Of a stretch of DNA of 64,000 nt, positions 9,444 to 34,686 are shown piece by piece. How positions within the stretch are numbered: the stretch's first letter is position 1; each line of letters starts with the position of its first letter. Source of the DNA: an uncultured Clostridia bacterium (GTDB lineage Bacteria; Bacillota; Clostridia; TANB77; CAG-508); NCBI GenBank assembly GCA_947581805.1, contig CANPVM010000002.1:140290-204289 (forward strand), in the 5' to 3' direction. The position numbers and the translations under genes were made by a program. The notes beneath the pieces were generated by a model. The model made no database searches. It was not told the DNA's origin and worked only from the letters and a program-made list of their open reading frames with translations.

Positions 9444-9460
9444 AATTATAGTCTCCCTTT

Positions 9461-17624: not shown

Positions 17625-20270
17625 TTAATAACTATCTCTAAAGTAAATGCTATCTAATAATTCTTTATTGATTTCTTTTTTTACATTTTTAAAACAATAT
17701 TTATATATTTTATCTCCTAGTGCTGGTACAGTGTATATAGAACCATCTTTAGTTATAACTCCTCCTGCACATTTTGCTTTTATATTTTCCTTTACCTTAT
17801 ATATTTCTTTTACTTCATCTTTTTCAATATCATATTCGTAAACGATATTACCATCTCCGGGGATTCCATAGATTTTTCCATTTATGCCTAATTTGGTTCC
17901 ATAGCAGCCTGATACGCCTATTTCTGTATGAATCATTTGACTTTTTTTATTTTTTACATCTATTTTTAATATGCCTTTTTCCGTTTTTGAAAAACCATAT
18001 ATATTTCCATCTTTTCCTATTACTGCATCAAATACCATTGTGTTAATTTTTTCTCCTATAAAAGAAACTTTTTCAGTTTTTGTATTTAATACCATTACTC
18101 TTCTATTTCTTTCTGGAAAAAAGTAAATATTATTATTAGGATGTAATATTCCTGAATTATATCTATATTTTACATTAAGCCACTTAGGAGATATATATAT
18201 TTTTTTTGCTATTTTATTCTTTACATCAATTTTAAGAATATGATTACAATTTCTTGGTGCTTGATATACAACTCCATTCTCTATTTGAACTCCACTATAA
18301 TGATGTTCTTGTTTATATTTTAATCCTAATTGAATTTCTTCAACTTTTTTAGTACTTGGATCTAAACATAGTATTGTATTTCTAGTTCTAGGAAGAGCAT
18401 AAATTTTTCCTAAATATTCAAAACCTCCTGTCCACCTATATTTTCCTTCTTTGCAATTAAATGGTATATAGTTATAAGTTTCATTTTTTATATCGTACAC
18501 TAGAAATTTATTAATTCCATTTGGTATAAAATAAATGTTGTCATTATATTCAACTGCTCCAACCCATTTAAAATCATTTTTACCATCATTTAATTGAATC
18601 TCTTCTATCTTTTCTATATATGCATTTTTGTTATTTTCAATTAGCTTTAAAAAATCTTTATTTATTTGAAATTTCTCATCACTTTTGTTCATTTTCTTTA
18701 ATTCTATTTTATCAGGTATAAAAGCTAATATCTTTGCTAATATATTTTCTACCATTTTCATTGATTCTTTACATTCTTTTTGATTTCTATAAAAAATATA
18801 TAACATAATATTGGGAACCGTTAAGCATAATATCATTCTTCCAATAAAACTAATATACGTATACTCTGTAAATAGTTTACTGCATAAATAACAAGTTATT
18901 AATGCAACAATTAAAGTAGCAAATAAATATTTTATATCTTTTAATAACCATTCTTTCATTTGTTTTTTATTAAAATAGTATTTAAATAATACTACAGTAA
19001 ATCCTACATCATATACGCATACTAGACTAATAATTGTAGAGATTATAATTCCTTTTAGTCCTATAAACTGTACTAATATAATATTGGTAGTTAAGTTTAC
19101 AATAGCAGCAATAAGTGGAACATATCTATTATACCACCACATTCCTAATGCTTCTTGATATACATCTAACATATCAAACCACTTATTTGTGAAGAAATAT
19201 ATTGCAAATAACAATACTATTTCATTACCTAGTAGCATTTTTTCTCCTACCCACAAATACATAAAGTTTTGGAATAAACATAATAGTGATATTGTACAAA
19301 ATGAGATAATCCATATATAAATAAATGTGAATTTTTTTAAATCATTAAAATTCTTTTCCTTTGTTTCTAAAATAATTGAATTTCCAACACTTGCTTTTAG
19401 TGAAGTTGATATAACTCCTAAAATTCCATATATTCCAGTAATTACATAATAATAATTTGAATATACTCCTAAAGTTTCCAAGCCTAAAAATGATGATATT
19501 ACTATAAAATCCACATTTCCTAATACCACTAATCCAATTTTCTTTAGTATCATTCCTTTTATTTGTTTTTTCAGTTCAATAACTTGATTTTCTTCAAGTT
19601 TTCCATCAATTTCTTTTATTTCAGGATATCTTTTATTTACAACCCAAGCGACAAATAAGTTATTGCATATTGTTGTTATAGGTAATGCAATTATGTATAA
19701 GTAATAATTTTTTGCTATTAGTAAAATTACTATTTGTAATAAATTTTTAGTAATTAAAACTACTGAACTAATTTTGCTAATCATATCTTCTCTTTGACTA
19801 GCTGCTAATAGTGAACTCTTATATGCAAATAGAAAGTACGTTAAGCATGTATTTACTAAATTAATTAGGTAAACTATATAAATGTTTATACCTGCTGGAT
19901 AATCTCCACTTATAAGGTTCTTTAAAAAAGGTAACATTATAAGTCCTATTGCAAAGATTATAATACCCATAATTCTGTAAACTTTTTTATAAAGATTTAA
20001 TAATACTCCTACTTTTTTAGTATCATTTTCAGCTATTGGCTTATACATACTAAATGTTATAGCATTAGAGAAACCTAACTCTGCTAAATTTAAAACTTGT
20101 AAAATTGAAACAAATAGGTCATTAAGACCTAAAAACTTGTTACCTAAAATATATATAAAAACTGTTCTAGTTATAAATGGAAATATAATATTTAAAACTC
20201 TCTGTAAAAATCCAAAGACAATATTTCTACTAGCATTTTTTGTTCTACTGTTTTCAATTAAATTCATCAC
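17625..20270 (-). CDS. Wzx-like polysaccharide flippase (MOP superfamily) fused to a C-terminal domain of about 390 aa built from roughly eight repeats of about 45 aa
   Basis: The N-terminal 500 aa or so are a typical multi-TM Wzx (...NASRNIVFGFLQRVLNIIFPFITRTVFIYILGNKFLGLNDLF...). The C-terminal part repeats an [ILV]Y-x-[IF]P-x(5-8)-[IV]L-x-[ILV]D-like motif, for example NDNIYFIPNGINKFLVYDIKNETY and GKIYALPRTRNTILCLDPSTKKV. Confidence 0.6.
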   Translation of the reverse strand: MMNLIENSRTKNASRNIVFGFLQRVLNIIFPFITRTVFIYILGNKFLGLNDLFVSILQVLNLAELGFSNAITFSMYKPIAENDTKKVGVLLNLYKKVYRIMGIIIFAIGLIMLPFLKNLISGDYPAGINIYIVYLINLVNTCLTYFLFAYKSSLLAASQREDMISKISSVVLITKNLLQIVILLIAKNYYLYIIALPITTICNNLFVAWVVNKRYPEIKEIDGKLEENQVIELKKQIKGMILKKIGLVVLGNVDFIVISSFLGLETLGVYSNYYYVITGIYGILGVISTSLKASVGNSIILETKEKNFNDLKKFTFIYIWIISFCTISLLCLFQNFMYLWVGEKMLLGNEIVLLFAIYFFTNKWFDMLDVYQEALGMWWYNRYVPLIAAIVNLTTNIILVQFIGLKGIIISTIISLVCVYDVGFTVVLFKYYFNKKQMKEWLLKDIKYLFATLIVALITCYLCSKLFTEYTYISFIGRMILCLTVPNIMLYIFYRNQKECKESMKMVENILAKILAFIPDKIELKKMNKSDEKFQINKDFLKLIENNKNAYIEKIEEIQLNDGKNDFKWVGAVEYNDNIYFIPNGINKFLVYDIKNETYNYIPFNCKEGKYRWTGGFEYLGKIYALPRTRNTILCLDPSTKKVEEIQLGLKYKQEHHYSGVQIENGVVYQAPRNCNHILKIDVKNKIAKKIYISPKWLNVKYRYNSGILHPNNNIYFFPERNRRVMVLNTKTEKVSFIGEKINTMVFDAVIGKDGNIYGFSKTEKGILKIDVKNKKSQMIHTEIGVSGCYGTKLGINGKIYGIPGDGNIVYEYDIEKDEVKEIYKVKENIKAKCAGGVITKDGSIYTVPALGDKIYKYCFKNVKKEINKELLDSIYFRDSY

Positions 20271-20894
20271 TTAACTCCATTTTATATCACTTTTTATTAC
20301 TTTGGCTGGAACACCAGCGACTATAGAATTTGGTGGTACATCTTTAGTTACAATTGCTCCCGCAGCAACAATTGCTCCATCACCTATGTGTACTCCCTTC
20401 ATTATAATTGCTCTTGTTCCAATCCATACATGATTTCCTATTACTACTTCTTTTTTTTCTTCGTGTTTTCCATCTTCTATTTTATGCGCATCTGTATCTC
20501 TAATAATAACATCCCTTGCAATAGCCACATTTTCACCTATTTTAATATCTTTAGCACATACAATTTGAACAAATCCATTCAAATATCCGCTTCCTATCGA
20601 TAAATTTGCATTATCAAAAACTCTAATATCACTACCACAACCTACTGAAAAATCATTGTTTATATTTATGCACGAATTTTTACCCATACTAAATCTTGTT
20701 TCTTGTTTTGATTTTGTATTTTCTTTAGTTCCTATTGTTAATCTTCCTTTGCAATTTATTTTTGATGTTTTATCAATCATAACTCTAGTAAATTTTTTAC
20801 ATACAATTAACTTCTTTTTCTTTATATTTATTTCAGTATTTTTTCTACAATTTACTTTTATAGTATTTAATATTTGAATGTCTGCCATTTTCAT
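20271..20894 (-). CDS. Hexapeptide-repeat acetyltransferase (WbbJ/Maa-like)
   Basis: Left-handed beta-helix hexapeptide repeats (...[52 protein letters not shown]). Confidence 0.7.
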
Positions 20895-20905
20895 TATTTT
20901 CTCTC

Positions 20906-22105
20906 CTAACTTTTTCCGATAACTTTTTTTACCCTTGCTTTAATCTTTTTTAATGTTCGATTTGTTTTAATTTTTATCTTAACTTTCTTCTTTAAGTTTG
21001 GTTCTGGAAAAAAATTTTTGCTCAATTCATTATATGACATTTTATCAATATTCTTAAAAACATTTTTTCTTGATTCTGTTATTTCAACTGAATTATTCAT
21101 ACACATATTTCCATTGAAAGCATCATTGGATGTAACTTCTACATATTCTACATTATCTTTAATCAATTCAAATAGTTTTTTCCCTTTATTTGAATTAATT
21201 AGAATCATAGATGTTCCTTTGTCACAATCTAATTTTGGATCTATTTTTTCAATACCCCAAAAATCCGCTAATGTTATATCAGCCACTCTTGGCAATCCTT
21301 TAAATTTACACTCATAGCAAGAAGGTCTCATAAATGCATTGTATTGTAAATATCCAATCCAATAAGAATCTAAATATCTAGTTCCTATATAATTTTTTCC
21401 ATTTTCAAAATCAACTTTAATTGAAAAATTATGCCATCCATAAGTTTTATTTTTAAATTTGATTTTTTTTATTTTAGAGTGATATTTTTCTTGTAAATTT
21501 AGAATATATTTTTTAAAAATTTTAGGTGAATTAACCCCTCTACAAATAAAATCACAAGTATATAAATTTTCATATTCTTTATTTGATAAGTAATTATATA
21601 ATCCAGCTATTTGACATGGACATCCACAAACTAAAACTTTTTCGCCTTGTTCCAATAATTTTTTTATCCTTTTAAAATTATCATTCATATCACTTTGTAA
21701 GTATTTAGAACTTCTTAAATTATCAATATCTTCTATATTAGAAGATACATAATGTTCTACTAACCACTCTTTATTATATATTGCCCCACAAACATATCCA
21801 TTTTGTTTATATATTGCCCCTGCAAGTTCTGAAAAAATTCCTCCTGAAGTACTATCTAATCTAACATGGTTATTCTTACTCCACGCTGCTATTACTGTTG
21901 GTTTCTTATAATTATCATTTATTTTGGTATTATTGTTAATTGGACAAACTTTATTGCAAAGACCACATTGTATGCATTTATTCATATCAACTTTTGGATA
22001 TTTAAAGCCTTCATTATCTTCTACCATTTTTATTGCTTTGACCGGACATATATTGTAACAAGCACTACAAGCCATGCAATTTTTCTTATCTTCTATTTTA
22101 ATCAT
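20906..22105 (-). CDS. Coenzyme F420 hydrogenase/dehydrogenase beta-subunit-like FeS protein (a frequent partner of pyruvyl transferases)
   Basis: It has N-terminal 2x[4Fe-4S] ferredoxin motifs ([24 protein letters not shown]) followed by a FrhB-like domain. Confidence 0.55.
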
Positions 22106-22130: not shown

Positions 22131-23186
22131 TTATTCTGTAATAAATTTTTCAAATTTTTCTTCACTTGTTTTTAAATTTCTATTTTTAATTGATACGTTA
22201 CCATTCTTTGCTATATTAATTCTAAGTTTATTGTCACTAAGTAGTTTATCAGCATTTTCATACATACCCTGCACATCTTTTGGTTTTGAAATCATAGAAT
22301 TATCACTATTTGCATATTCCATAATTCCCAAGCAATTAGTTGTTACTAGTGCACAACCACAAGCCATTGCTTCTAATCCTGGAAGTCCAAATCCTTCTTC
22401 TATGCTTGTACATATATATATTGCACTATTATTTAGTATATTTACTACCTGTTCTTCTGAAGCATTTCTTGTATAACTTATCCATTTAGGTAAATTTTTA
22501 GGGGGTTTACAACTACCATACATCTTAACTTCTAGATTTTTATATTTTTCTTTAAGTTTATTTAAAACTTCTATGCCATATTTACTACCTTTTATTTCAC
22601 CGTCTGAATAAAGCATACTAATAGAGAAAGGATTTCTTTTTTCTATATCATTATTTATTTTAAAAATATCTAAGTCTATTCCATTTGATATTAATGTTGA
22701 AGGATTTTTACTATATTTATCAACTATACTTTTTAACCATTTAGATATTACAATGTTATTCATACCATAATTATATGTTTCTCTTAAAAATTCATCTGTT
22801 ATAGTTCCCCAATTCTCATATCCTTGTATAAAATAAAATTTATTACCTTTATTTTCTGAAAGTTTATAAACTTGATATGCAGTATTTGGTGATGTACATA
22901 TGCTAATATCCGCATTTCTAATATATTTTTCATTAAAATTTTTAACTGCTGATTGAGAGATTTTATCATTTAATTTATACCACTTTGGATATCCAATAAA
23001 TCTTATTCTTCTTATTAGTCTCACAACGATTTTAGGAATATGCTTAGAATTTTTTCCATCTTTTAGATTATAATAAATATGCACATCGTGTCCTTTTGAA
23101 GCTAAATAATTTGAATATTGGTATACCACTTTATATCCTCCAGCAATTCCTTTATAAACTTGTGGCAAATAAAAATTTATCTTCAT
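22131..23186 (-). CDS. Glycosyltransferase family 1
   Basis: The 351-aa protein has the GT1 C-terminal EEGFGLPGLEAMACG motif (E-x7-E region). Confidence 0.7.
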   Translation of the reverse strand: MKINFYLPQVYKGIAGGYKVVYQYSNYLASKGHDVHIYYNLKDGKNSKHIPKIVVRLIRRIRFIGYPKWYKLNDKISQSAVKNFNEKYIRNADISICTSPNTAYQVYKLSENKGNKFYFIQGYENWGTITDEFLRETYNYGMNNIVISKWLKSIVDKYSKNPSTLISNGIDLDIFKINNDIEKRNPFSISMLYSDGEIKGSKYGIEVLNKLKEKYKNLEVKMYGSCKPPKNLPKWISYTRNASEEQVVNILNNSAIYICTSIEEGFGLPGLEAMACGCALVTTNCLGIMEYANSDNSMISKPKDVQGMYENADKLLSDNKLRINIAKNGNVSIKNRNLKTSEEKFEKFITE

Positions 23187-23192
23187 GTTCCC

Positions 23193-25076
23193 TTACCCCT
23201 TTTTTATTTTTTGTATTAATTTCCAATATAACATTCCAAAATAGTAATTTATATTTTTTGCATAAATTATTTTATTTAAAAAGCCTATTTTCCATATACT
23301 CTTTCTAAAATCTTTTATAAAAATTTTTGGATGAACAAAATAATATGATATTTTTTTTGCATTTGCTACGTCAAGGATTTCATAGTCAAGAAACTTTAAA
23401 TTTCCAAATGTTTCTAATATTTTTTTATCAGGTTTATCTAAACTTAATGTAAAATTATTACTACAAACTTCTGAATTAAATTCAATGTACTCTTTGCAAC
23501 TGGCATTATTAATGTCTTTTACAAAATCAATGGCACCTTCTTGTATATTAGTTGATAATTCTAGTTCATGAGAATTTTTATATTCATAATCGTAAAATTC
23601 TACATTTTCTTTTGAATTATTAAAACATTTTACAGATCCATGTCTTGCTAAGAATAAAAATTCAAATATTCCATTATTTCTATTTATGTTTGAGCGTATT
23701 TCTTTTTTATAATCTTTATCAAATAAAAAGCCTTTCATTCTTGATGTATTTTGATTATATATTAAACCTACATAATATCCATATATATCATTATCTAAGA
23801 TTCTTGATAATGACATTTGCATATTTCCGCCCCATCCTATATCAACTACAGCTAGTTTTCCTCTAAAATCAACACTGTCTAAATATTTTTTCATACATGA
23901 ATATTCTTTTTTAGAATTATTAATAATTCTATCAAATATTGCTTTCATAAAATCAATAAAATCTTCATTTGTTTTCATAAATTCTATACTATATTCTTTT
24001 TCTAAGTCTAATTTATATTGCTTTATTTCCTTAGATAAATCAATGTCATCTAATCCAATTCTTTTTATGAACTTATCTAAACGTATTTTTTTTACTCCAT
24101 ACATTGAAGTATATATTTCATTTATTTCTTTGCATTGCCATAATGAAGGTACTATAGTTGACCTTCTTGAAGCATAAAGATAATAACTTTTTATATTAGT
24201 ATTATTTATCACATCAAAAACTTTCTTTATTATGTATCCATCTCTAGCCATAAAATAAACTTTATTTATTTTTTCTTTTTGTAAATTATCTATTAACCAC
24301 TTAGTAAATCCATACAAAATTGGTCCAAAACATACATATCCCCAATCATATAATTTTTTCTCTTTATAGATTAAATTGTTTTTTATAAAACTACTTAATA
24401 CATTTGAACTTATATTGTTTTTTATTGTCGCATTGTAATAACAATTATTATCATTTTTAATATAATGAATTGCTTCTATACCTATGGATTTTGGATTTAG
24501 GTAATCACTTTTATAACTATCACCAATATGAATTATTTCATTCTTGTTTATCTTTAACTCTTCTAAAACTTTAAAAAATAAATTTCCACTTGATTTTGTA
24601 ACTTTAAAATCAGAGGATAAAAAAAGCTTATAATATTTTATATTGTTTTTATCTAAAATTCTTTCAATTACAGATTTATCTAAATACATATCTGATGTTA
24701 AAATTACTTTTTTTCCGTTTTTATTGCAATATTCTAAAATATCAATCATTTCATTATTTATTTGACAAATATTTAATTCTGCTTCTATTTCAATCTTTTT
24801 TAATCTATCGCATACTTCTGTAGGATATTCTTTTTCTAAGGATGAATATATATCATTAAATTCTATTTCTTCACTCTCAGATGATTTTCTAGCTTTTATT
24901 TCACTATTCACTCTTTTAGTTAAAAAATCAAAAATTTTATCTTTAAACTTACTATTATATTTTTTTTGTACAATAGAATATACATCATGTGGATGAATAC
25001 AATTTCTTTTTATTAGTGTATCAAAAATATCAAAAGAAATATATTCATATTCTTTTAGCTTACCAATATCTAGCAT
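23193..25076 (-). CDS. Large HAD-superfamily hydrolase-like protein, associated with polysaccharide loci
   Basis: The 627-aa protein has an N-terminal HAD motif I (ISFDIFDTLIKRN). The rest has no family I recognise. Confidence 0.4.
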   Translation of the reverse strand: MLDIGKLKEYEYISFDIFDTLIKRNCIHPHDVYSIVQKKYNSKFKDKIFDFLTKRVNSEIKARKSSESEEIEFNDIYSSLEKEYPTEVCDRLKKIEIEAELNICQINNEMIDILEYCNKNGKKVILTSDMYLDKSVIERILDKNNIKYYKLFLSSDFKVTKSSGNLFFKVLEELKINKNEIIHIGDSYKSDYLNPKSIGIEAIHYIKNDNNCYYNATIKNNISSNVLSSFIKNNLIYKEKKLYDWGYVCFGPILYGFTKWLIDNLQKEKINKVYFMARDGYIIKKVFDVINNTNIKSYYLYASRRSTIVPSLWQCKEINEIYTSMYGVKKIRLDKFIKRIGLDDIDLSKEIKQYKLDLEKEYSIEFMKTNEDFIDFMKAIFDRIINNSKKEYSCMKKYLDSVDFRGKLAVVDIGWGGNMQMSLSRILDNDIYGYYVGLIYNQNTSRMKGFLFDKDYKKEIRSNINRNNGIFEFLFLARHGSVKCFNNSKENVEFYDYEYKNSHELELSTNIQEGAIDFVKDINNASCKEYIEFNSEVCSNNFTLSLDKPDKKILETFGNLKFLDYEILDVANAKKISYYFVHPKIFIKDFRKSIWKIGFLNKIIYAKNINYYFGMLYWKLIQKIKKG

Positions 25077-25094
25077 ATAACTCCTCCTCTAATG

Positions 25095-26864
25095 CTAATT
25101 CTTCTTTAAAATATTGATTATCTTCTTAGCTTTATCTTGGCCTATTGTTCCTTTTATAATATTTTTACTTTTATTTACAATTTCATCTTTTAGTGTTCGT
25201 GGACTACTAAAATCATAAAAATCAAAAATTGTTTGAGCATCATCTTTCATCTCAGTAAATACTTCAAAAAATACTGGCTTTTCATCTTGTATTTTCATGA
25301 ATTTTTCCACATTAGCCTCAAATGATTCTTTATCATTTGCTGATAAATATGTAAAATTATTTTCTTCTACCCATCCTTTTGCTTTTGTATTATGTCTTGC
25401 TGATGTATGTAGCTCTCCTGATTTATTTAAACATGTCTTATTATAGTAAAACTCAGAACCTCCATGATTATTTATCATTAAAATATGTACATTCTTTTTT
25501 ATGCTATTTATTCTTAATGCATTCATATCATAAAAGAAAGCTAAATCCCCTATTACAAGAAAACTCTCCTTGTTACTAACTGTTGCTTGACCTAAGAATG
25601 TAGATAAAGGTCCATCAATTCCATAAGTGCCTATATTTGCATATGTTTTTATATTGTTATTTAATTTAAAATAATTAGCTATTCTAATACTATCATTAAC
25701 ACTTAAATGTAAAATTGAATTCGATGGCATTTTTTGAACAACATTTTTTATTGCATAAATATGTGAAAATCTAAATTCAGGCATTTCTACTGAATCTGAG
25801 TATTTTTTAAAATTATTATAATATTCCATACTATTCTTATTCTTTGAATTTTTATTAAAATATTCAAAGAAATATTCTGGTTGACATTCAAATATTGTTT
25901 TTAAACTCTTGAACGTATCAACTACTTGTCCATCTTCTTCTATACTCCAATGTTCAAATTTTCCATTTAATTTTCTAAATTGCTCTTTTATTGAAGAGAA
26001 AATTTGTCCCCCAAAAGTTATCAATACATCTGGTAGTAGCTCCTTAACTATATTACTATTTGAATATTTAGGATCAAAACATGTTATAGTATTTATTCCT
26101 TCTTCTATCTGGACATTTGACATATGATCTACTACTATAGTTGCATTATAGTTTTTAAAGAAATCTTTTATTTCTTTTTCTAATTTTGGAGTAACGTTAC
26201 TTTTTTGTCCACATACAACTAGGACTTTTTTGCAATTTTGTAATTTTTTTACTTTTTCATCCCATTTTGATTTATCTTCGCACAAACTAATTCTTTCTAT
26301 TTTTTTTACTTTTGGAAGTTCTTTTACATTAAAGGACATATTATAATCATAGGTTGGAACATTTATATGAATTGGCCCTTTTCTACCATTATGATTTAAT
26401 TCCAAAAATGCTTCATTTATTAGTCTTTGGCAATAGATTTCATCATCTACTGTATTTATAATTGGTAGATTAACTGATTTTTGTACATGCCTATCAAACA
26501 TACCTACTTGATTTATCATTTGATCTTCCCATTGACCCAGCATTCTAAAATCTCTGTCACTTGTTAATACTATTATTGGAACTCTTTGATAAAATGCTTC
26601 TGCAACAGGTGGCCAATAATTACATGATGCTGTAGAAGCTGTACAAGATATTAAAACTGGTTCATTTAATTCTTGTGCTAAGCCCAATGCAAAATATCCC
26701 GCACTCCTTTCATCTACAACGGAATAACATTTAAAGAAATCATCTTCTTCAACAGAATGAACAAAAGGTACATTTCTTGATCCTGCCGACAGTACACAAT
26801 GTTTAATTCCATACTCTTTTAATAATGCTATTAAAATTTGATAACTTTTTATTTCTGTATACAT
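25095..26864 (-). CDS. MenD-family thiamine-diphosphate enzyme (SEPHCHC-synthase-like paralog) embedded in the glycan locus
   Basis: Blocks CVLSAGSRNVPFV, DERSAGYFALGLAQ, VPIIVLTSDRDFRMLGQWEDQMINQ and GPIHINVPTYD align with the MenD motifs PGSRSTPL, DERSAGFFALGLAK, LTADRP...QAINQ and GPVHVNVP. A ThDP GD..FYDMN-type motif (IGDLAFFYDMNAL) is present. Start taken as the ATG at 26864 with AAGGAG 7 nt upstream. Confidence 0.6.
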   Translation of the reverse strand: MYTEIKSYQILIALLKEYGIKHCVLSAGSRNVPFVHSVEEDDFFKCYSVVDERSAGYFALGLAQELNEPVLISCTASTASCNYWPPVAEAFYQRVPIIVLTSDRDFRMLGQWEDQMINQVGMFDRHVQKSVNLPIINTVDDEIYCQRLINEAFLELNHNGRKGPIHINVPTYDYNMSFNVKELPKVKKIERISLCEDKSKWDEKVKKLQNCKKVLVVCGQKSNVTPKLEKEIKDFFKNYNATIVVDHMSNVQIEEGINTITCFDPKYSNSNIVKELLPDVLITFGGQIFSSIKEQFRKLNGKFEHWSIEEDGQVVDTFKSLKTIFECQPEYFFEYFNKNSKNKNSMEYYNNFKKYSDSVEMPEFRFSHIYAIKNVVQKMPSNSILHLSVNDSIRIANYFKLNNNIKTYANIGTYGIDGPLSTFLGQATVSNKESFLVIGDLAFFYDMNALRINSIKKNVHILMINNHGGSEFYYNKTCLNKSGELHTSARHNTKAKGWVEENNFTYLSANDKESFEANVEKFMKIQDEKPVFFEVFTEMKDDAQTIFDFYDFSSPRTLKDEIVNKSKNIIKGTIGQDKAKKIINILKKN

Positions 26865-26878
26865 ATATATTCTCCTTT

Positions 26879-27757
26879 TTATATATTTATATGATTTCCC
26901 GCATTGCAATGTAAGATTTCACCTGAAATACATTTACTTGCATCGCTCAATAAAAATAAAGTAACTTCTGCTATTTCCTCTGGTAAAAAACATCTACCTG
27001 AACTTTCATCTGTTGCCAAATTATTGCCATTTGTTCCAGCATAATCCTTTGTCATATCAGATATTGTTACACCAGGTGCTATACCATTTACTCTAATTCC
27101 ACTTTTGTAATATTTTTTTGCCAATGCCTGTATTAAAGAATTTAGGGATGCTTTTGTTAATCTATATGGTAAATCAGATGCACATGAACCGCCTTGCGAA
27201 CTAATTATTATTAATTCAGATTCTCCCTCATTTTCTTTATTCTCTATTTTTTTCTCAATAAATGCTTTTGATAAAAAATATGTTCCCCTAAGATTAATAT
27301 CAAATTGTTTATCAAAACTTTCTGTTGTTACGTTTTCGATACTTCCCTCATATAAGTTTATTCCTGCATTATTGATAAGAGCATTTATCACACCATTTTT
27401 AAATTTTTTGCAACATTGCTTTATAAACAAATTAGCATTATCTACATCACTTATATCAAATACTATATATGAACAATTTTTACCAAGTTCCTTACATGCT
27501 TTAATAAGTTTATTTTCATCTCTACCCGAAATTATAACATTAGCTCCTTCTTGAATACATTTTTTTGCCATATAATAGCCTAATCCTCGTCCTCCACCTG
27601 TAATTACAATATTTTTATTTTTTAATATTTCTCCATAATTAACTTGGGAGATTTTAACTTCTACATAATTTTCAGGTTGACTGGCTAAAATAAATTTTGC
27701 AATTTTTTTACAGAACTTTCTAACCCCCCCCCATTTATTTTGCTCCTTTCTATACAT
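26879..27757 (-). CDS. SDR-family oxidoreductase #3 with a G9 tract in its 5' region, overlapping the 3' end of pyruvyl transferase #2
   Basis: It has the motif NIVITGGGRGLGYYMAKK. Its N-terminal extension is homologous to SDR #1 and #2 (KISQVNYGEIL versus KINQIHSEKML). Codons W-G-G-V are tgg ggg ggg gtt. Confidence 0.65.
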   Translation of the reverse strand: MYRKEQNKWGGVRKFCKKIAKFILASQPENYVEVKISQVNYGEILKNKNIVITGGGRGLGYYMAKKCIQEGANVIISGRDENKLIKACKELGKNCSYIVFDISDVDNANLFIKQCCKKFKNGVINALINNAGINLYEGSIENVTTESFDKQFDINLRGTYFLSKAFIEKKIENKENEGESELIIISSQGGSCASDLPYRLTKASLNSLIQALAKKYYKSGIRVNGIAPGVTISDMTKDYAGTNGNNLATDESSGRCFLPEEIAEVTLFLLSDASKCISGEILHCNAGNHINI

Positions 27758-28863
27758 TCTTTGATAGTTTCTTCTATAAAGTTAATAGATTTTTTTCTTT
27801 CTTCATCTAATATTTTATTAACCTTTTCATATTCTATTTCCTTGTCAATAATAGTTAAATCATTAAAATTATTTACTCTTCTTTCTTCTAAGTTTGTTAA
27901 CTCTAATATACTTTGTAATCTTGTACTAAATTTTTGCGGAAAAATACATACAAATTTTTTATTAAAATTTATTGCAAAACCTGTAGCATGAAAAGAATCA
28001 GTAACAATATATGCTGCTTTATCAAAATAAGATAAAAACTCATTTATTGTAGGACAAAATACAAGTTTACCGTATTTAAAAAATTGATAGTTTACATTAG
28101 AAATTCTTAATACTGGCATTTTTTTCTTTTTTGATAGTTTTTTGACATATTCATCAAATTTTGGATTGTTGCTATTTAATTGGTAAACCAAAATATATGG
28201 TTTCTTTATTTTGACTTCTTCACTTATATCTTTCCATGCTTTTTTATTTAATAATAATGTTGGATCTAATACTTGGATAGCATTGTCTATTCCCATTTTT
28301 TTTAATATTTTTAATGCAGAATTTTCTCTAACAGAAATCCTTTTATATTTTATTAACATTTTTTTTAGTTCTTCTTCTTCTTTTTTCTCAAGTTCTATTT
28401 TTCCAAAACTTGAAGCATAAGCAAATCTAGGTACATCATTCTCTAAAAAATCTAGAAATAAAGCTCTATCAATTTCTTCATTCCACTCACTATTCCATAC
28501 TTGATCGCTTCCTGTACAATATATATCTGCTTTTGGCGTATTTTTTTTTAATTCTTCATTTGAATAATATTTTTTTGTTAAATGGACGTATTTACCTAAA
28601 AACTTATGAAAAACTTCTATTTGTTTGTTTATAGATGTAGTTAAAAATAATTTTCCAATAAATTTTGTGATAATATTTCTAGAGAAAATAGATGAGCTAT
28701 CAATTCTTCTTTTTACCATAGTTTCTTCTACATCTACTTTTCTATAATAATTTATTATTTCAACTTCATTTCCTAGTTTTTCCAACGTTTTTTGTGTTGC
28801 ATATGTTTGCAAAGCAGACCCATAATTTTTTACATTATGTAAAGTAATAACGTCTATTTTCAT
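27685..28863 (-). CDS. Polysaccharide pyruvyl transferase family protein #2
   Basis: The 392-aa protein has the GSDQVWNSEW block and is homologous to 13679-14761. Confidence 0.6.
   Translation of the reverse strand: MKIDVITLHNVKNYGSALQTYATQKTLEKLGNEVEIINYYRKVDVEETMVKRRIDSSSIFSRNIITKFIGKLFLTTSINKQIEVFHKFLGKYVHLTKKYYSNEELKKNTPKADIYCTGSDQVWNSEWNEEIDRALFLDFLENDVPRFAYASSFGKIELEKKEEEELKKMLIKYKRISVRENSALKILKKMGIDNAIQVLDPTLLLNKKAWKDISEEVKIKKPYILVYQLNSNNPKFDEYVKKLSKKKKMPVLRISNVNYQFFKYGKLVFCPTINEFLSYFDKAAYIVTDSFHATGFAINFNKKFVCIFPQKFSTRLQSILELTNLEERRVNNFNDLTIIDKEIEYEKVNKILDEERKKSINFIEETIKECIERSKINGGGLESSVKKLQNLF
27724..27732. repeat. Homopolymeric C9 (G9 coding) tract in the overlap between SDR #3 and pyruvyl transferase #2
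   Basis: Read directly from the sequence. It is in-frame in both genes: NGGGLES in the transferase tail and KWGGVRK in the SDR. Confidence 0.9.
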
Positions 28864-28917
28864 AGTTCGAATCCTTTCTGTTAAAATTATTAATTTTAGA
28901 TTTTATTATATTATTTG

Positions 28918-29964
28918 TTAAAATATAACACTTTGATATGGCAAAATGCCATTGAATGATACTACATTCATTATATAATAAATAAATATTACTGTATAAA
29001 ATATAAGACTTTCTAATCTTTTTTTTCTAAAATCTTGTATTTCATAGTAGCTAGCTAATATAAAAGTTATAAAAATTAAAAATTGTAAAGCAACTCTATT
29101 AAATAGCCAATTTTTTATTGAAAATATATTAATAATTATTCCTATCGTTGCTATTTTAAAATATAAATTATTATTGCCATTATAATCTTCAATTTTTTTC
29201 ATATTCGTAATCATGATAAATGTATATATTACTATATAAAATAATACATTAAGATATGTTCCAACTCCTGATTTATACTCATTAGCTGTATCATAATACA
29301 TTTGGTATGCATCCATTCCCCCTACTATTTTTAAATACAGAAAATCATATAATATAAAGCCAATTAAACTTATTATTAATACATATAACGGTCTTATTTT
29401 TAGTTTTGGCTTTAAATATAAGAAAGAAAATACTAATATACTCAACAATGATATTGAATGTATCGAGAAACCTATTAAATAAAAGATTAAGCATTTAATT
29501 TTTTTCTTTCTTTGTAAATAATTTAATCCATAAATAACAAACATTGTAGCTATACTTTGCCTAAATCCATTAAGAGAAAACGCATAAAATCCAAGTGCTA
29601 TATATATTAACATTACTAATCCAGGTCTTTCTGAATGTTTTTTCATAAAACTATATATTAAAAAATTAGTACAAAAAGAAACTATAAATATCCAAGCTTG
29701 ATAATTTAAGTTTAATTTTGTATTAAAAAAATATGTTAATAATGTATATCCTATACCTGTTCTACTTTGTAAAGCATTCTCTATACTTGTACCCAATTGG
29801 TAACTCGATTCATATAATATATAATCAGATCCTATTCCATATCTTAATCCTGAGAAAAGAATAATTATACCTAAAAATAATATATCATAAACATCCCACT
29901 TTTTCTTTTGTATCTTAAAAGATAACAAAAATATTATTATGTAAAATATAATATATACTATCAT
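28918..29964 (-). CDS. Wzy/EpsG-like oligosaccharide repeat-unit polymerase
   Basis: The 348-aa protein is polytopic (about 10-11 TM) and sits between GT and pyruvyl transferase genes. Confidence 0.45.
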   Translation of the reverse strand: MIVYIIFYIIIFLLSFKIQKKKWDVYDILFLGIIILFSGLRYGIGSDYILYESSYQLGTSIENALQSRTGIGYTLLTYFFNTKLNLNYQAWIFIVSFCTNFLIYSFMKKHSERPGLVMLIYIALGFYAFSLNGFRQSIATMFVIYGLNYLQRKKKIKCLIFYLIGFSIHSISLLSILVFSFLYLKPKLKIRPLYVLIISLIGFILYDFLYLKIVGGMDAYQMYYDTANEYKSGVGTYLNVLFYIVIYTFIMITNMKKIEDYNGNNNLYFKIATIGIIINIFSIKNWLFNRVALQFLIFITFILASYYEIQDFRKKRLESLIFYTVIFIYYIMNVVSFNGILPYQSVIF

Positions 29965-29982
29965 TTTTACCTCTTTTAAATT

Positions 29983-31005
29983 TTAATTTAATTTTTGTAT
30001 TTTTCTAATTATTGCTAACAAATATACTGGCAAATATATTTTTTTTATTATAAAAAATAATACCATTTTTCTTTTTATATCAATTTTACTTTTAAACTTT
30101 AAAGCTTTTTTTATTATTTCATTATTTATAAATTCTTCAAATGTTTTTTTTCTTATCCTATATTTAATTTTTGAATCAGGATTAAAATATCCACTAATTG
30201 CTGTTGCTACTATGATATAATTAATTCTGTTATAAAAAGATTTTGTAACTGTTTCATTGTCAAGTTTTAATACTTTATTTTCGACTTTTTCTAGTCCAAA
30301 TAACAATTGTAAATATCCTTGATTATTTGGTTTAGTTGTAATAGATTTATCATTATATACATAATGATAAATATATTCTTTTATAAATTGTATTTTTGTT
30401 GCTTTTCTGAAAGCATCAAAATTAAAATCAAATGACTCTACCCCTTGTCTTATTTCAGAATCATGAAAAATATTATTTTTTGTTAAAAATTCTTTATTAT
30501 ATAATTTAGCTGTTACATCTGAAATATTGCTATTAAAGTCAAATAAAACATCTAAAAAAATTTTACAATCTTTTTTATATACTTTTCCATCTTCAAATAA
30601 ATTATCAAATTCATATAAAAAAGAACTTTTTTTATACTCTTTTATTGTTCCAAAACAAACTATATCTGGGGAGTCCTTTAGTCTATTTATTACTTTTTCA
30701 AATCCATCTTTTTCAATCCAATCATCACCATCTACAAAAGTAATCCATTTTCCAGTTGCATTACTAACTCCAGTATTTCTTGCTCCACATAATCCCATAT
30801 TAATTTGATTTATAAGTTTTATTTTATTGCTTAATTCTAAATATTTGTTGCATATTCTTATATTATCTCTATTGGTCGAGCCATCATTAACTAATATTAT
30901 TTCAATATTTTTGTATGTCTGTTTAATTAAGCTTTCAATGCATTTTTGTAACATATCATTTGGAACATTATATATTGGTACAATTATACTAATTAAATCA
31001 TTCAT
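29983..31005 (-). CDS. Glycosyltransferase family 2
   Basis: N-terminal GT-A signature (ISIIVPIYNV...DGSTN...DGDD). Confidence 0.75.
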   Translation of the reverse strand: MNDLISIIVPIYNVPNDMLQKCIESLIKQTYKNIEIILVNDGSTNRDNIRICNKYLELSNKIKLINQINMGLCGARNTGVSNATGKWITFVDGDDWIEKDGFEKVINRLKDSPDIVCFGTIKEYKKSSFLYEFDNLFEDGKVYKKDCKIFLDVLFDFNSNISDVTAKLYNKEFLTKNNIFHDSEIRQGVESFDFNFDAFRKATKIQFIKEYIYHYVYNDKSITTKPNNQGYLQLLFGLEKVENKVLKLDNETVTKSFYNRINYIIVATAISGYFNPDSKIKYRIRKKTFEEFINNEIIKKALKFKSKIDIKRKMVLFFIIKKIYLPVYLLAIIRKIQKLN

Positions 31006-31070
31006 AACTTCACCTTTTTTAATTGTATTGTAAAATTTTCATTATAATATATTTTTAGACTATTAATTTT

Positions 31071-32216
31071 TTATTTGTTTACATACACTTTTTTATACTT
31101 TTGCGTCATAACATTGTTATTATATTTTGTCATAATGTCATTATGAGCATTATTCTTAATTTGTATATTTGCTTTATTCTTTTGTATGTTTTCTATTATT
31201 TTTATATAATCTTTTGACGTTTCAGCTATAAATCCATTTACTCCATTTTCTATAACATCCCTATTTCCTATACAGTTACTAACAATACATATCTTTTTCA
31301 TATACATTGCTTCTAGTAAGGAAATAGGGAGACCTTCCCATAATGAAGTTAATATAAATATGTCTTGTTTACTTAAAATTTCTAATACTTCTTTCCTAGT
31401 TTTCCAACCTGTTACTTTTATATTTGAACTTACTAATGTATCTTTTAATTCTCCATCACCAATCCATGTAAATTGAATAGTTGGCATACTTGACGCAATT
31501 TCATTAAATACTTTTGGATTCTTTTGATATTCAATTCTTCCTACCGTACATATCTTCAAATTGTTACAATCAATTTCTTTTAAATCTATATGACGTTTAT
31601 TTTCTTCTACTGTATAATCATTTACACTGCTGTTATGAGCAATTTTTTCTACTTTTTCTGTCTCTTTTTTTAATTTTTCAATATCTATTCCATTATTTAT
31701 ACAAATTGAATTTTTATTTAATTTTTTAGCTTCTAAATACTCACCATTTGAACATCCTACTATTGTACATTTTTTATTATATATTGCTGTTGCTTTTTCT
31801 ATTAGCCAATATATCATTCTTTTTAATTTTGAATTATCTTGTTTTAAAAAAGAGAATCCATGAGGGTTATAAAACATTTTTACTTTTCTACCACTTATAG
31901 CTAATCTACCTAATACTCCTGCTTTTGATGAATGTAAATGCACTATATCCGGCTCTTCTTCTTTTACTGCTTTTTTAATTTCTTTTAGTGCTTTTATATC
32001 TTGTTGTGGACTTATGTTTCTTGTAAAATTTTCTATTTTTATAAATTTTATTCTTTTGTCAAAGTAATTTTTAAAATCTCTTGGAGTTTCTGCTCTAACT
32101 GCATAAGCAATTGATATATCAAATTCATCTACCATTTTATTTGTTAAATCTAGTAATACAGAAAATATACCTCCACCAAAAGCTTCGACAATATGTAATA
32201 CTTTTTTCCTTTTCAA
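31071..32216 (-). CDS. Glycosyltransferase family 1
   Basis: The 381-aa protein has a GT-B fold and the block SLWEGLPISLLEAMYMKKICIVSNCIGNRDVIENGVNGF. Confidence 0.7.
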   Translation of the reverse strand: MKRKKVLHIVEAFGGGIFSVLLDLTNKMVDEFDISIAYAVRAETPRDFKNYFDKRIKFIKIENFTRNISPQQDIKALKEIKKAVKEEEPDIVHLHSSKAGVLGRLAISGRKVKMFYNPHGFSFLKQDNSKLKRMIYWLIEKATAIYNKKCTIVGCSNGEYLEAKKLNKNSICINNGIDIEKLKKETEKVEKIAHNSSVNDYTVEENKRHIDLKEIDCNNLKICTVGRIEYQKNPKVFNEIASSMPTIQFTWIGDGELKDTLVSSNIKVTGWKTRKEVLEILSKQDIFILTSLWEGLPISLLEAMYMKKICIVSNCIGNRDVIENGVNGFIAETSKDYIKIIENIQKNKANIQIKNNAHNDIMTKYNNNVMTQKYKKVYVNK

Positions 32217-32320
32217 TTAAAATACTCCTTTTTCTATTTATATTTAGATAATATATAAATAGATTTATATGCTACCTAGTGCTATTTTTTTATTTTTGTC
32301 TCTATGAAATTTCATTTATA

Positions 32321-33031
32321 CTATACAGCTCCTCTAAAAACTCTAAAAAATGTTTTTAAAAGTATTTTTAAGTCTAACCATAAACTTCTATCTTTAATAT
32401 ATTTAATATCTATTTCAAGTCTTTCATTAAAATCAACATCACTTCTACCACTTACTTGCCATAGGCCTGTAAGTCCTGGCTTAACTGTTATAATTTGTTG
32501 ATATTTGCTTCCCATATCTTCTTTTTCTCTATAAAGGTATGGACGTGGTCCAACCAAACTCATTTCCCCTTTTAATACATTTATTAATTGAGGTAACTCA
32601 TCTAAACTTGTTTTTCTTAAAAAATTACCTAGTTTTGTAATTCTAGGGTCATCCTTTAATTTTTTATATTTATGATATTCCTCTCTTGCTTCTTCATTCT
32701 CATTTAAATATTCCCATAGTTTTTCATCTGCATGCATTACCATAGAACGGTATTTATATAATTTAAATTCTTTTCCGTCTTTTCCTATACGTAATTGGTC
32801 AAAAAATAATGGTCCTTTATTTTCTTTTGATATTTTATTTACTATGTATAAAATGGCTGTAACTGGAATTAGAATGACTACCCCAACTAAGCCTCCTATG
32901 ATATCTACAAATCTTTTTATGGTTTTATATATAATTTTTTTATTGCTAACTATTTCTTCTTGTTTTACTTGAGTTTCTAATATAACATCATCTAGTAAAA
33001 TGGCATTATCATGTTCTAAATTTGTACCCAT
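32321..33031 (-). CDS. Undecaprenyl-phosphate sugar phosphotransferase (bacterial sugar transferase, WbaP/CpsE C-terminal-domain type). Likely first gene of the glycan operon
   Basis: The 236-aa protein has one TM plus the conserved ...LDELPQLINVLKGEMSLVGPRP... catalytic region. Confidence 0.75.
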   Translation of the reverse strand: MGTNLEHDNAILLDDVILETQVKQEEIVSNKKIIYKTIKRFVDIIGGLVGVVILIPVTAILYIVNKISKENKGPLFFDQLRIGKDGKEFKLYKYRSMVMHADEKLWEYLNENEEAREEYHKYKKLKDDPRITKLGNFLRKTSLDELPQLINVLKGEMSLVGPRPYLYREKEDMGSKYQQIITVKPGLTGLWQVSGRSDVDFNERLEIDIKYIKDRSLWLDLKILLKTFFRVFRGAV

Positions 33032-33317
33032 TTTAAATTCCCCCTAGTAAATATAATTATATAATTTATTGAAAATAATGTCAATTATTTATTGTCTTTT
33101 TTTAGCACTTTTTGAAATTTTTTGAAACAAAATATAAATACGTTTTATTTTTGTTGAAATTATTGTTGTTCTAAGTGTTTAAGTTTTTTTAAGTTTGTGC
33201 TTTTATGTATATTAATTGCTAATTATTTTGGAAAAAATTACATATTTTATTTTTCATAAAAAAAGATTTTAGAATTCTTATAAAACTCTAAAATCTTTTT
33301 TATATTATAAATTATTT

Positions 33318-33830: not shown

Positions 33831-33834
33831 GATA

Positions 33835-34662: not shown

Positions 34663-34686
34663 TTTTATAATTCCCTTTCTTCTATT

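Follow-up and report, generated by a model that had tools for sequence, protein, structure and literature searches.

A MenD-like ThDP enzyme proposed to tailor a pyruvylated glycan in bacterial polysaccharide loci

Described systems closest to the locus

MenD (SEPHCHC synthase, EC 2.2.1.9) is the ThDP enzyme of menaquinone synthesis, in which decarboxylation of 2-oxoglutarate is followed by a Stetter-type 1,4-addition to the α,β-unsaturated carboxylate of isochorismate. We analyzed a 64,000-nucleotide stretch (hereafter the window; all positions refer to it) of an uncultured Clostridia bacterium (GCA_947581805.1, contig CANPVM010000002.1, 140,290–204,289), in which a gene that databases would label menD lies in a Wzx/Wzy polysaccharide locus. 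The encoded protein shares with MenD, and especially with the Bacteroidota men-operon enzymes, the three-domain ThDP fold family, conserved Glu55, Ile418, Gln118, Arg395 and Phe475, the GDL...NN metal/diphosphate motif, and 33–39% identity to operon MenDs of Bacteroides and Parabacteroides. It differs in belonging to a separate clade, in lacking a men context, in its substrate residues, and in its C-terminal 115 residues, which no longer align to Firmicute MenDs; its partners are a pyruvyl transferase (PT) and a reductase instead of MenF and MenH.

Other known systems share parts of the logic proposed here. MurA and MurB install a PEP-derived enol ether on a sugar hydroxyl and then process the double bond to leave a stable, ether-linked acid (a lactyl ether), but they are unrelated protein families; in our proposal a C–C bond-forming ThDP step is inserted and the reductase acts on a ketone rather than on the C=C. 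The ketal pyruvyltransferases CsaB, Pvg1p and WcaK belong to the same family (PF04230) as the partner PT, for which a PEP donor is presumed. Characterized members close a cyclic ketal, whereas the PTs of this module are proposed to hand over, or be intercepted at, the enol-ether stage. In yersiniose biosynthesis YerE uses ThDP-dependent C–C bond formation to decorate a sugar and is followed by the reductase YerF, while the "Stetterase" PigD performs the Stetter reaction with pyruvate as donor; both ThDP enzymes belong to other subfamilies, act on other acceptors (a nucleotide keto-sugar and an enal, respectively) and have no PT partner.

The polysaccharide locus and its genes

The initial annotation described a MenD-family ThDP enzyme, a 627-aa HAD-like protein and an SDR among glycosyltransferases and pyruvyl transferases, and this description is confirmed: all three ORFs are present on the minus strand. 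The ThDP enzyme (25095–26864, minus strand) has 589 aa and starts at an ATG with an AAGGAG Shine-Dalgarno sequence 8 nt upstream. It contains the blocks SAGSRNVP, VVDERSAGYFALGLA, LTSDRD...QMINQ and GPIHINVP, and Pfam finds TPP_enzyme_N at 1.4e-20. NCBIfam TIGR00173 (menD) scores 276.3 bits against a cut-off of 244.2 (E 5.5e-82), while the next-best ThDP family, acetolactate synthase, scores only 47.8 bits. The best solved structures are Firmicute MenDs at E 1e-49.

PT1 (27685–28863, minus strand; 392 aa as read) matches PF04230 at E 1.7e-38 over profile positions 1–276 of 280, but a sequence search found no relative among solved structures. SDR1 (26879–27757, minus strand; Pfam adh_short_C2 3.1e-41) is a classical SDR of 292 aa from the ATG at 27757, carrying the TGxxxGxG (ITGGGRGLG), NNAG, catalytic Ser (IISSQ) and YxxxK (PYRLTK) motifs, although the Lys is Asn in the orthologues from loci L001 and L003 of our locus set. 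A G9 tract (27724–27732, minus strand; C9 on the plus strand) lies in the 73-nt overlap between the end of PT1 and the start of SDR1, where about 0.004 C9 runs are expected by chance in the window. It is either a candidate slipped-strand switch or a homopolymer sequencing error. With G8, the ATG at 27734–27732 (AAGGAG at 27748–27743) comes into frame and gives an SDR starting MGGVRKF...KIAKFILASQP, matching the orthologues' MGYKK.IRKIAKFIL.SQP, so the native start is probably ATG 27734; PT1 would then end at 380 aa, closer to the 371–378 aa of its homologues.

The surrounding genes encode Bac_transf, GT4, GT2, EpsG, PT1, a further GT4, an FrhB-like flavo/Fe-S protein (20906–22105) that might play a MurB-like role for another PT, a hexapeptide acetyltransferase, a Wzx-like flippase, Acyl_transf_3, two more SDRs, a second PS_pyruv_trans (13679–14761) and a PRPP synthetase. 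No homologue of MenB, MenC, MenE, MenF or MenH occurs in the 64-kb window. A neighboring GT4 was considered as a fixed member of the module and rejected, because the GT4s next to the module are only 21–34% identical to each other or to those of the window, except within one sublineage.

The 627-aa protein (23193–25076, minus strand), with an N-terminal HAD domain, was considered as a phosphatase of the MenD-like pathway, and this was also rejected. It is assigned by homology and predicted fold to the PRPP-dependent ribofuranosyltransferases with a HAD phosphatase (CrpP–CriT type): a profile search matched the Thermobacillus composti "polysaccharide ribofuranosyl transferase" (PDB 7SHG) over the full length (positions 6–572, E 6.9e-60), including a shared YEY.xFDIFDT motif, and Bcs3 of Hib (PDB 8A0C) at E 5.6e-44, while Foldseek with an AF2 model (pLDDT 90.3) gave E 2.7e-28 and 2.5e-25, respectively. 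Identity is about 22% and the domain orientation differs (TM 0.43–0.63). It is a stand-alone protein in a Wzx/Wzy locus of a Gram-positive organism rather than part of an ABC-transporter-dependent capsule polymerase. Its homologues occur in loci without a ThDP enzyme. The ribose-phosphate pyrophosphokinase at the distal end of the same locus (12616–13560, minus strand; Pribosyltran_N 1.7e-44, Pribosyl_synth 1.5e-27) is the probable supplier of the donor and gives indirect support for PRPP use, a mechanism described in PMC10299916.

Phylogeny, gene linkage and active-site residues

The initial annotation had proposed a phylogeny against bona fide MenD as a test, and we built a neighbor-joining tree of 87 sequences from 80 pattern-selected loci plus a few others. 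All 34 Bacteroidota MenDs that sit beside menF, menB, menC or menE form one clade, and all enzymes in a polysaccharide context, including that of the window, form a sister clade in 99 of 100 bootstraps. No men genes lie next to the gene in any of the 47 loci of the latter clade.

Across these 47 loci, a PT lies within 3 kb or is fused in 41 and is present somewhere in 44; of the three loci with no detectable PT, two are on contigs that end within 1.7 kb of the gene. A classical SDR lies within 3 kb in 32 loci, mostly within 35 bp, and if extended-SDR-type reductases are counted as well, an NAD(P) reductase lies within 3 kb on the same strand in 42, leaving five with none detectable. Among the men-type loci none has a PT, and 1 of 37 has a reductase (an SDR). 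Single polypeptides join PT and ThDP domains in either order, or occur as AKR-4Fe4S-ThDP. The same triad is present in Streptococcus, Bifidobacterium, Lactobacillaceae, Collinsella, Lachnospiraceae, Ruminococcus albus, Bacteroides, Akkermansia, Stutzerimonas and Hydrogenophaga; carriers include Streptococcus GCA_900103355.1, Eisenbergiella tayi DSM 26961, R. albus 7 and Stutzerimonas xanthomarina. A protein search of a plasmid collection gave, among clear clade members, only the R. albus 7 example. A homologue search seeded with a proteobacterial member, aimed at Providencia or another organism of known glycan structure, returned Psychrobacter, Marinobacterium, Stutzerimonas, Runella and others, none informative on structure. 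In five loci the ThDP enzymes are 64–69% identical and the SDRs 51–57%, but their partner PTs only 23–44%, which fits ThDP enzyme and SDR recognizing a constant pyruvyl-derived group while the PT recognizes a variable sugar.

The cofactor residues E52, G439–D440 with N465–N466, I416 and Q115 are kept in the window's enzyme, and the equivalent columns are invariant or nearly so across the clade and invariant in operon MenDs. Of the eight substrate-recognition residues of MenD (B. subtilis R32, R106, K299, R409, R428, I489, F490 and L493), seven of which are described as strictly conserved (PMC2914249), the carboxylate-binding R30, R104 and R394 are kept, as is F472. The other four are changed: K299 (K292) is deleted, R428 (R413), the Arg that mainly binds 2-oxoglutarate, is I411, and I489 (I474) and L493 (L478), part of the hydrophobic patch that packs against the isochorismate ring, are E471 and N475. 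S391 is also Asn. Among 44 clade members, position 474 is Glu in 36, position 478 is mostly Asn or Tyr (30), and K292 is absent in 24 and never Lys or Arg in the rest. By contrast, the 36 MenDs with a men context (34 loci plus E. coli and B. subtilis) keep nearly all eight; three have Tyr for Arg395 and one has Arg for K292.

Proposed chemistry and alternative readings

We hold with high confidence that the 589-aa protein is not the menaquinone enzyme but the ThDP-dependent member of a conserved, horizontally mobile, PT-coupled glycan-modifying module, consisting of a PF04230 PT, a MenD-derived ThDP enzyme and an NAD(P)-dependent carbonyl reductase (a classical SDR here, an extended SDR or an aldo-keto reductase in other lineages). 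The specific chemistry is much more tentative, and we consider it somewhat less likely than not, although it is the best of the readings weighed here. In this view, PT1 would use PEP to place an enolpyruvyl ether on a hydroxyl of a sugar in the lipid-linked repeat unit, and the ThDP enzyme would decarboxylate a small 2-oxo acid, probably pyruvate rather than 2-oxoglutarate in this subfamily, and add the acyl anion to the terminal CH2 of the enolpyruvyl group, the same Stetter-type 1,4-addition to an α,β-unsaturated carboxylate that MenD performs on isochorismate. The resulting sugar 2-ether of a 4-oxo acid would be reduced by SDR1, with pyruvate as donor, to a sugar 2-ether of 2,4-dihydroxypentanoic acid. 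Such ethers are real polysaccharide components, for example in Providencia alcalifaciens O31 (PMC10609480), and have exactly the C3 + C2 architecture that this route would produce. While family placement, separation from operon MenDs, gene linkage and fusions, and retained cofactor beside changed substrate residues are demonstrated by our analysis, the catalytic activities of all three enzymes, the order of the steps, the enolpyruvyl acceptor, the donor and the product are inferred from sequence alone.

Several points weigh against this chemistry. PF04230 enzymes are known only as ketal formers and their mechanism is described as unexplored (PMC10435577), so a released enolpyruvyl ether is an assumption by analogy with MurA. 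In MenD the enolpyruvyl group of isochorismate is a bystander, whereas our proposal needs it to be the Michael acceptor, and an α-alkoxy-acrylate is an electron-rich one. No polysaccharide structure is known from any carrier organism. The donor assignment for the window rests on one residue pattern, and one subfamily of the clade (loci of the L021–L029 type) keeps R413, S391 and Ile, Leu or Val at position 474 and may still use 2-oxoglutarate. A literature search found no paper linking a ThDP enzyme to pyruvyl transferases, no gene cluster for the O31 antigen and no assigned pathway for its substituent, within a collection that omits most subscription journals.

The interpretation in the initial annotation, that the MenD homologue next to two pyruvyl transferases hints at synthesis of an unusual C–C linked acid substituent on a sugar, is supported in part. 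Membership in the MenD branch, the absence of a men context, the phylogenetic separation and a general link to a PT (adjacent across phyla, and in some proteins fused), which the idea of a C–C linked acid built on a pyruvyl group predicts, are supported. However, the HAD-like protein is not part of this chemistry, only the adjacent PT1 is tied to the enzyme while the second PT lies next to two other SDRs, and loss of the main 2-oxoglutarate-binding residue makes that donor improbable.

Alternative readings were judged unlikely to differing degrees. A ThDP carboligase followed by a reductase is the established logic for two-carbon branches on sugars, as in yersiniose, and MenD-family enzymes also catalyze 1,2-additions in vitro, so the enzyme could add an acyl anion to a keto-sugar, with reduction of the new side-chain carbonyl and an independent PT, for example ketalizing the new diol; the polar replacements at I474 and L478 would suit a sugar acceptor. 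This is the least unlikely rival, but the conserved set contains no enzyme that would make a keto-sugar, such as a 4,6-dehydratase or sugar oxidase, and the route explains neither the tight adjacency and fusion of PT with the ThDP domain nor why the PT is the variable partner while the ThDP enzyme is 64–69% conserved across phyla. Slightly less likely is a plain 2-oxo-acid decarboxylase of the pyruvate- or phosphonopyruvate-decarboxylase type, whose aldehyde product is reduced to an alcohol to supply or trim a substituent linked to pyruvyl transfer. The Glu at E471, next to the thiazolium-facing position, recalls the catalytic Glu that follows the ThDP motif in pyruvate decarboxylases, though offset by one residue, and aldo-keto and NAD_binding_4-type reductases typically reduce aldehydes. 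Yet neither a pyruvate ketal nor an enolpyruvyl ether is a 2-oxo acid, so the PT product cannot be the substrate, no other source of a sugar-bound 2-oxo acid is conserved in the loci, and Gln118 and Arg395, which serve the second half-reaction in MenD, are invariant or nearly so.

Gene linkage alone does not fix the order of the steps, and the ThDP enzyme and reductase could first make a free hydroxy acid or diol that a PT-like transferase attaches to the glycan. We regard this as very unlikely, given that no kinase, nucleotidyltransferase or CoA ligase is conserved with the triad, that PF04230 enzymes use PEP as donor (PMC10435577), and that PT–ThDP fusion suggests hand-over of a glycan-bound intermediate. 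A displaced housekeeping MenD is a remote possibility: the protein passes the curated equivalog cut-off and close relatives are named MenD, but phylogeny, substrate residues, the lack of men genes in the window and in the 47 clade loci, and PT fusions speak against it, and relatives 64–71% identical occur in Streptococcus and Bifidobacterium, genera generally lacking menaquinone synthesis.

The boldest form of our proposal, which remains doubtful, is a widespread, MenD-derived "glycan Stetterase" pathway creating ether-linked 4-oxo or 4-hydroxy acids on capsules, EPS and O-antigens; it would show that PF04230 enzymes can deliver enol ethers, and in this strain the module may additionally be switched by the poly-G tract. 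If correct, the proposal adds ThDP-dependent C–C bond formation to the known chemistry for decorating bacterial surface glycans and would give a route to ether-linked dihydroxy-acid substituents for which we found none. Reassignment of the HAD-like gene indicates that PRPP-dependent ribofuranosylation, as predicted by homology, also operates in a Clostridium-like Wzx/Wzy locus. As TIGR00173 names members of this clade MenD, a systematic misannotation would be exposed in thousands of gut and environmental genomes, and menaquinone-pathway predictions for gut Firmicutes, Actinobacteria and others would be inflated by false positives. The module sits in capsule and EPS loci of abundant gut commensals (Blautia, Anaerostipes, Collinsella, Bifidobacterium, Bacteroides and Akkermansia), and the substituent it makes may therefore be a common but unseen surface epitope.

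Organization of the polysaccharide locus

The region has about 26% G+C and carries sporulation genes (SpoIIIAH), so the source is Clostridium-like. All genes from 33031 down to about 12616 lie on the minus strand and form a Wzx/Wzy-type polysaccharide locus, which opens with a priming Bac_transf (32321-33031), a GT4 (31071-32216), a GT2 (29983-31005), and an EpsG-type polymerase (28918-29964). These are followed by a PS_pyruv_trans pyruvyl transferase (PT1, 27685-28863), the short-chain dehydrogenase SDR1 (26879-27757), the ThDP enzyme (25095-26864), a 627-aa HAD-like protein (23193-25076), a further GT4 (22131-23186), an FrhB-like Fe-S protein (20906-22105), and a hexapeptide acetyltransferase (20271-20894). 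The remainder of the locus consists of an 881-aa protein (17625-20270), a split Acyl_transf_3 gene (16506-17569), SDR2 and SDR3 (15650-16483 and 14798-15619), a second PS_pyruv_trans (PT2, 13679-14761), and a PRPP synthetase (12616-13560). The coordinates, lengths, and sequence blocks given in the initial annotation for the MenD-like enzyme and its neighbors are all correct.

The 881-aa protein appears to fuse an N-terminal multi-pass Wzx/MATE-like flippase region to a C-terminal beta-propeller (DUF6923, Kelch-like hits), an unusual architecture for a flippase; the flippase assignment rests on the hydrophobic N-terminal sequence and on clustering with flippase-like ORFs of related loci, not on a Pfam hit. 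PT2 lies next to SDR2 and SDR3, two tandem paralogues that are 73% identical to each other and 35-36% identical to SDR1, and all three SDRs share an N-terminal extension of about 40 aa. This pairing of a PT with SDRs in the absence of a ThDP enzyme (13679-16483) might make a lactyl-type ether. The FrhB/FdhB-like flavo-Fe-S protein hints at a second PT-coupled redox step, perhaps a MurB-like enolpyruvyl reduction, since in one related locus (L024) the ORF that matches it (748 aa) also matches the PT profile, and another (L017) has a 613-aa FrhB-like ORF. Outside the locus, an ISL3-family transposase fragment on the opposite strand (11232-11705, plus strand) lies between the polysaccharide genes and the upstream acylation genes and may mark a boundary of recombination or insertion. 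Those acylation genes, all on the minus strand, comprise an FkbH-like protein (3806-5587), an 82-aa carrier protein with a phosphopantetheine site (3554-3802), and an MBOAT (2431-3552), which lie together, and a second MBOAT with an AlgX-like SGNH protein (8154-10942). They resemble Dlt-like or alginate-like systems for esterifying a surface polymer, possibly with a glycerate-type acyl group.

Three G8-G9 tracts are found on the coding strand, all inside this locus, although only about 0.004 C9 runs and, by our own estimate from the same base frequencies, about 0.02 C8 runs would be expected by chance in a sequence of this length and composition. The G9 at 27724-27732 lies in the 73-nt overlap of PT1 and SDR1, at the 5′ end of the latter. 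Orthologous SDRs start MGYKK.IRKIAKFIL, and the matching ATG (27734-27732) with AAGGAG 8 nt upstream is present here but is in frame only with G8. With G9 it reads MGGG-stop, SDR1 depends on a poorly placed upstream ATG, and PT1 is 12 residues longer than with G8. The G8 at 17235-17242 sits exactly where the Acyl_transf_3 O-acyltransferase gene is split into two overlapping ORFs (16506-17258 and 17213-17569), and one more G would restore a single gene of about 355 aa, so that it looks like a phase-variable gene in the OFF state. The third tract (15556-15563, G8) is near the 5′ end of SDR3. An ENA metagenome contig (L004), which may not be an independent sample, has the same G9 and the same split of the acyltransferase gene. 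The tracts may be slipped-strand switches for glycan decorations, or they may be homopolymer errors.

The 627-aa protein, a predicted ribofuranosyltransferase

An AlphaFold model of the HAD-like protein (23193-25076, minus strand), built on 30 homologues, has a mean pLDDT of 90.3. A Foldseek search of the PDB placed the whole protein on the “polysaccharide ribofuranosyl transferase” of Thermobacillus composti (7SHG, E 2.7e-28) and also matched it to the CrpP-CriT part of the Haemophilus influenzae type b polymerase Bcs3 (8A0C/8A0M, E about 1e-25, TM 0.62). A profile of the family hits 7SHG at E 6.9e-60 over its full length, sharing the YEY.xFDIFDT motif. In Bcs3, CriT transfers ribofuranose-5-phosphate from PRPP and the HAD phosphatase CrpP removes the 5-phosphate (PMC10299916), and the PRPP synthetase gene that closes the locus (12616-13560) fits that role.

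Homologues of the 627-aa protein sit in polysaccharide loci without any ThDP enzyme. One of these, a Clostridium-like locus on an ENA metagenome contig (L090), shares the backbone of the region 23193-35313 (sortase, Bac_transf, GT4, PT, GT2, EpsG, the 627-aa protein, and Wzx) but lacks the ThDP and SDR genes, suggesting that the ThDP and SDR pair is gained and lost as a small cassette. Conversely, in Streptococcus, Bifidobacterium, and Lactobacillaceae the module lacks the 627-aa protein. We therefore regard it as an independent predicted ribofuranosyltransferase, its activity being inferred from homology and modeled fold.

Phylogeny and conserved partners of the MenD-like enzyme

The ThDP protein (25095-26864, minus strand), whose start at ATG 26864 has a strong AAGGAG 8 nt upstream, passes the NCBIfam menD equivalog model (TIGR00173; 276.3 bits against a cut-off of 244.2), with the next ThDP family far below it, and its best solved relatives are Firmicute MenDs at E 1e-49. 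By clade, gene context within the 64-kb window, and active-site residues, it is nevertheless a MenD relative and not a MenD. A word-indexed search returned thousands of homologues, of which the best 120 are 63-71% identical (apart from the identical sequence itself); the named ones come from Streptococcus, Clostridium paraputrificum, Bifidobacterium, Lactobacillaceae, Blautia, and Anaerostipes, and all are automatically named MenD. The curated model thus scores a non-MenD protein above its cut-off, while in the more distant subfamily the names are split between “MenD” and “thiamine pyrophosphate-binding protein.” An exhaustive HMMER scan of 1.84 billion cluster representatives gave 1,846 representatives at E <= 1e-30, and a scan of one genome per GTDB species returned 80 loci, which were annotated with phmmer using the proteins of the region studied here and the E. 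coli menFDHBCE products as queries. Thirty-four loci, all assigned to Bacteroidota apart from one contig labeled Lachnospiraceae (L053), have the gene between menF and menB/menC/menE, and these true MenDs are 33-39% identical to the query. The other loci have polysaccharide genes around the gene.

The comparison with bona fide MenDs, which the initial annotation had proposed as a test, was made in a neighbor-joining tree of 87 sequences. The operon MenDs and the polysaccharide-context enzymes form two sister clades, with E. coli and B. subtilis MenD outside; the polysaccharide clade is recovered in 99 of 100 bootstraps and the Bacteroidota men clade in 76. The tree is based on loci selected by two peptide patterns, with only one partial Firmicute MenD and E. 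coli MenD as outgroups, and the context assignments rest on phmmer and hmmsearch with in-house queries plus spot checks with Pfam. Using a PT profile built from the loci, a PT was found fused, adjacent, or within 3 kb of the ThDP gene in 41 of 47 clade loci, and somewhere in 44 of 47; two of the three loci with no PT hit have contigs that end within 1.7 kb of the gene. No men-type locus has a PT. A classical SDR lies within 3 kb on the same strand in 32 of 47 loci, usually within 35 bp, and in a more distant subclade an Epimerase/NAD_binding_4-type reductase takes its place directly upstream, so that altogether 42 of 47 loci have such a reductase, against 1 of 37 men-type loci. In the Streptococcus (L001, 11780-12643) and Bifidobacterium (L003, 11777-12628) orthologues of SDR1 the Lys of the YxxxK motif is Asn (PYGLAN, PYGMTN), whereas SDR1 and the Lactobacillaceae orthologue keep Lys.

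The same arrangement is annotated on the Ruminococcus albus 7 megaplasmid (PT, flippase, “thiamine pyrophosphate-binding protein,” and NAD-dependent epimerase/dehydratase) and is also present in a Stutzerimonas xanthomarina EPS locus. Cultivable candidate carriers of the module are Streptococcus GCA_900103355.1, Bifidobacterium GCA_003474835.1, Eisenbergiella tayi DSM 26961, Collinsella aerofaciens, R. albus 7 (plasmid pRUMAL01), S. xanthomarina, and Porphyromonas endodontalis ATCC 35406. One locus from a Eubacterium sp. MAG (L019) holds two paralogous ThDP enzymes of the clade, each with its own pyruvyl transferase, which suggests two such modifications on one glycan. Among the long representatives there are single polypeptides joining PF04230 to the ThDP enzyme, in both orders, and others joining an aldo-keto reductase with a 4Fe-4S domain to the ThDP enzyme. 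Linkage across at least seven phyla, together with these Rosetta-stone fusions, shows that PT, ThDP enzyme, and carbonyl reductase work together. Among five loci whose ThDP enzymes are 64-69% identical and whose SDRs are 51-57% identical, the partner PTs are only 23-44% identical and the neighboring GT4s 21-34%. The ThDP enzyme and SDR therefore seem to see a constant chemical group, while the PT adapts to different sugars.

Active-site residues and proposed chemistry

The alignment was mapped onto E. coli numbering and onto the B. subtilis mutagenesis study (PMC2914249), comparing 36 men-context MenDs with 44 sequences of the polysaccharide clade. The cofactor residues Glu55, Gly441, Asn469, Ile418, and Gln118 are invariant in both groups (E52, G439, N466, I416, and Q115 in the enzyme studied here), and Asp442 is invariant in the MenDs and Asp in 43/44 of the clade (D440). 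In contrast, Ile474 is invariant in the MenDs but Glu in 36/44 of the clade (E471), Leu478 is Leu in 35/36 MenDs but Asn or Tyr in 30/44 and otherwise varied (N475), Lys292 is Lys (35) or Arg (1) in the MenDs but absent in 24/44 and never Lys or Arg in the clade (deleted here), and the invariant Ser391 becomes Leu or Asn in 34/44 (N390). Arg395, which is Arg in 33/36 MenDs, is kept in 43/44 (R394), while Arg33 and Arg107, both invariant in the MenDs, are kept in 27/44 (R30) and 26/44 (R104), respectively. Arg413, the residue that mainly binds 2-oxoglutarate in MenD, is Ile here (I411). Ile474 and Leu478 are two of the three residues of the hydrophobic patch that packs against the isochorismate ring, and the R413-to-hydrophobic and I474-to-Glu changes co-vary almost perfectly. 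One subfamily (the type of loci L021-L029, plus L061 and L023) keeps R413, S391, and a hydrophobic residue (Ile, Leu, or Val) at position 474, and nearly all of its members are still linked to a PT or an SDR. We read this as a common acceptor with different 2-oxo-acid donors: in the subfamily of the enzyme studied here, the pocket for the distal carboxylate of 2-oxoglutarate is gone and the ring-binding patch has become polar, as would suit a sugar.

The hallmark of MenD is decarboxylation of a 2-oxo acid followed by Stetter-type 1,4-addition to an alpha,beta-unsaturated carboxylate (PMC2914249). The only such acceptor that the conserved partners could provide is the enolpyruvyl ether CH2=C(OR)COO-, which a PEP-dependent transferase would form on a sugar hydroxyl before, or instead of, ketal closure. 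Addition of an acyl anion to its CH2 would give R'-CO-CH2-CH(OR)-COO-, and the reductase would give the 4-hydroxy acid. With pyruvate as donor, the product would be a sugar 2-ether of 2,4-dihydroxypentanoic acid. Such ethers are documented components of bacterial polysaccharides, for example on beta-D-Man 4-O-substituted in Providencia alcalifaciens O31 (review PMC10609480 citing Shashkov et al. 2008), and we found no biosynthetic assignment for them. The idea in the initial annotation that MenD-type chemistry next to pyruvyl transferases builds an unusual C-C linked acid substituent is partly supported. While the family placement, the separation from operon MenDs, the gene linkage and fusions, and the residue changes come directly from the analysis, the catalytic steps and their order, the enolpyruvyl acceptor, the donor, and the product remain an inference from sequence, without support from the glycan structure of any carrier. 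PF04230 enzymes are known only as ketal formers and their mechanism is called unexplored (PMC10435577), and in MenD the enolpyruvyl group is a bystander.

Literature searches, in a collection without most subscription journals, found nothing that links a ThDP or MenD-like enzyme with pyruvyl transferases in polysaccharide synthesis. A MenD engineering paper notes natural MenD homologues with altered Arg107 and asks whether unexplored branches exist, but it looks to the shikimate pathway (PMC6618250). The enzyme is of a known kind, in a module that appears undescribed. Alternative explanations are a branched sugar route like that of YerE/YerF, a plain decarboxylase acting with a reductase, and a route through a free metabolite, none of which explains the PT fusion as well. 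The mechanism proposed here would explain why the three enzymes travel together, why PT and ThDP enzyme are sometimes fused (interception of a labile enol ether), why several unrelated reductase families can fill the third role (simple ketone reduction), and why carboxylate-binding arginines persist.
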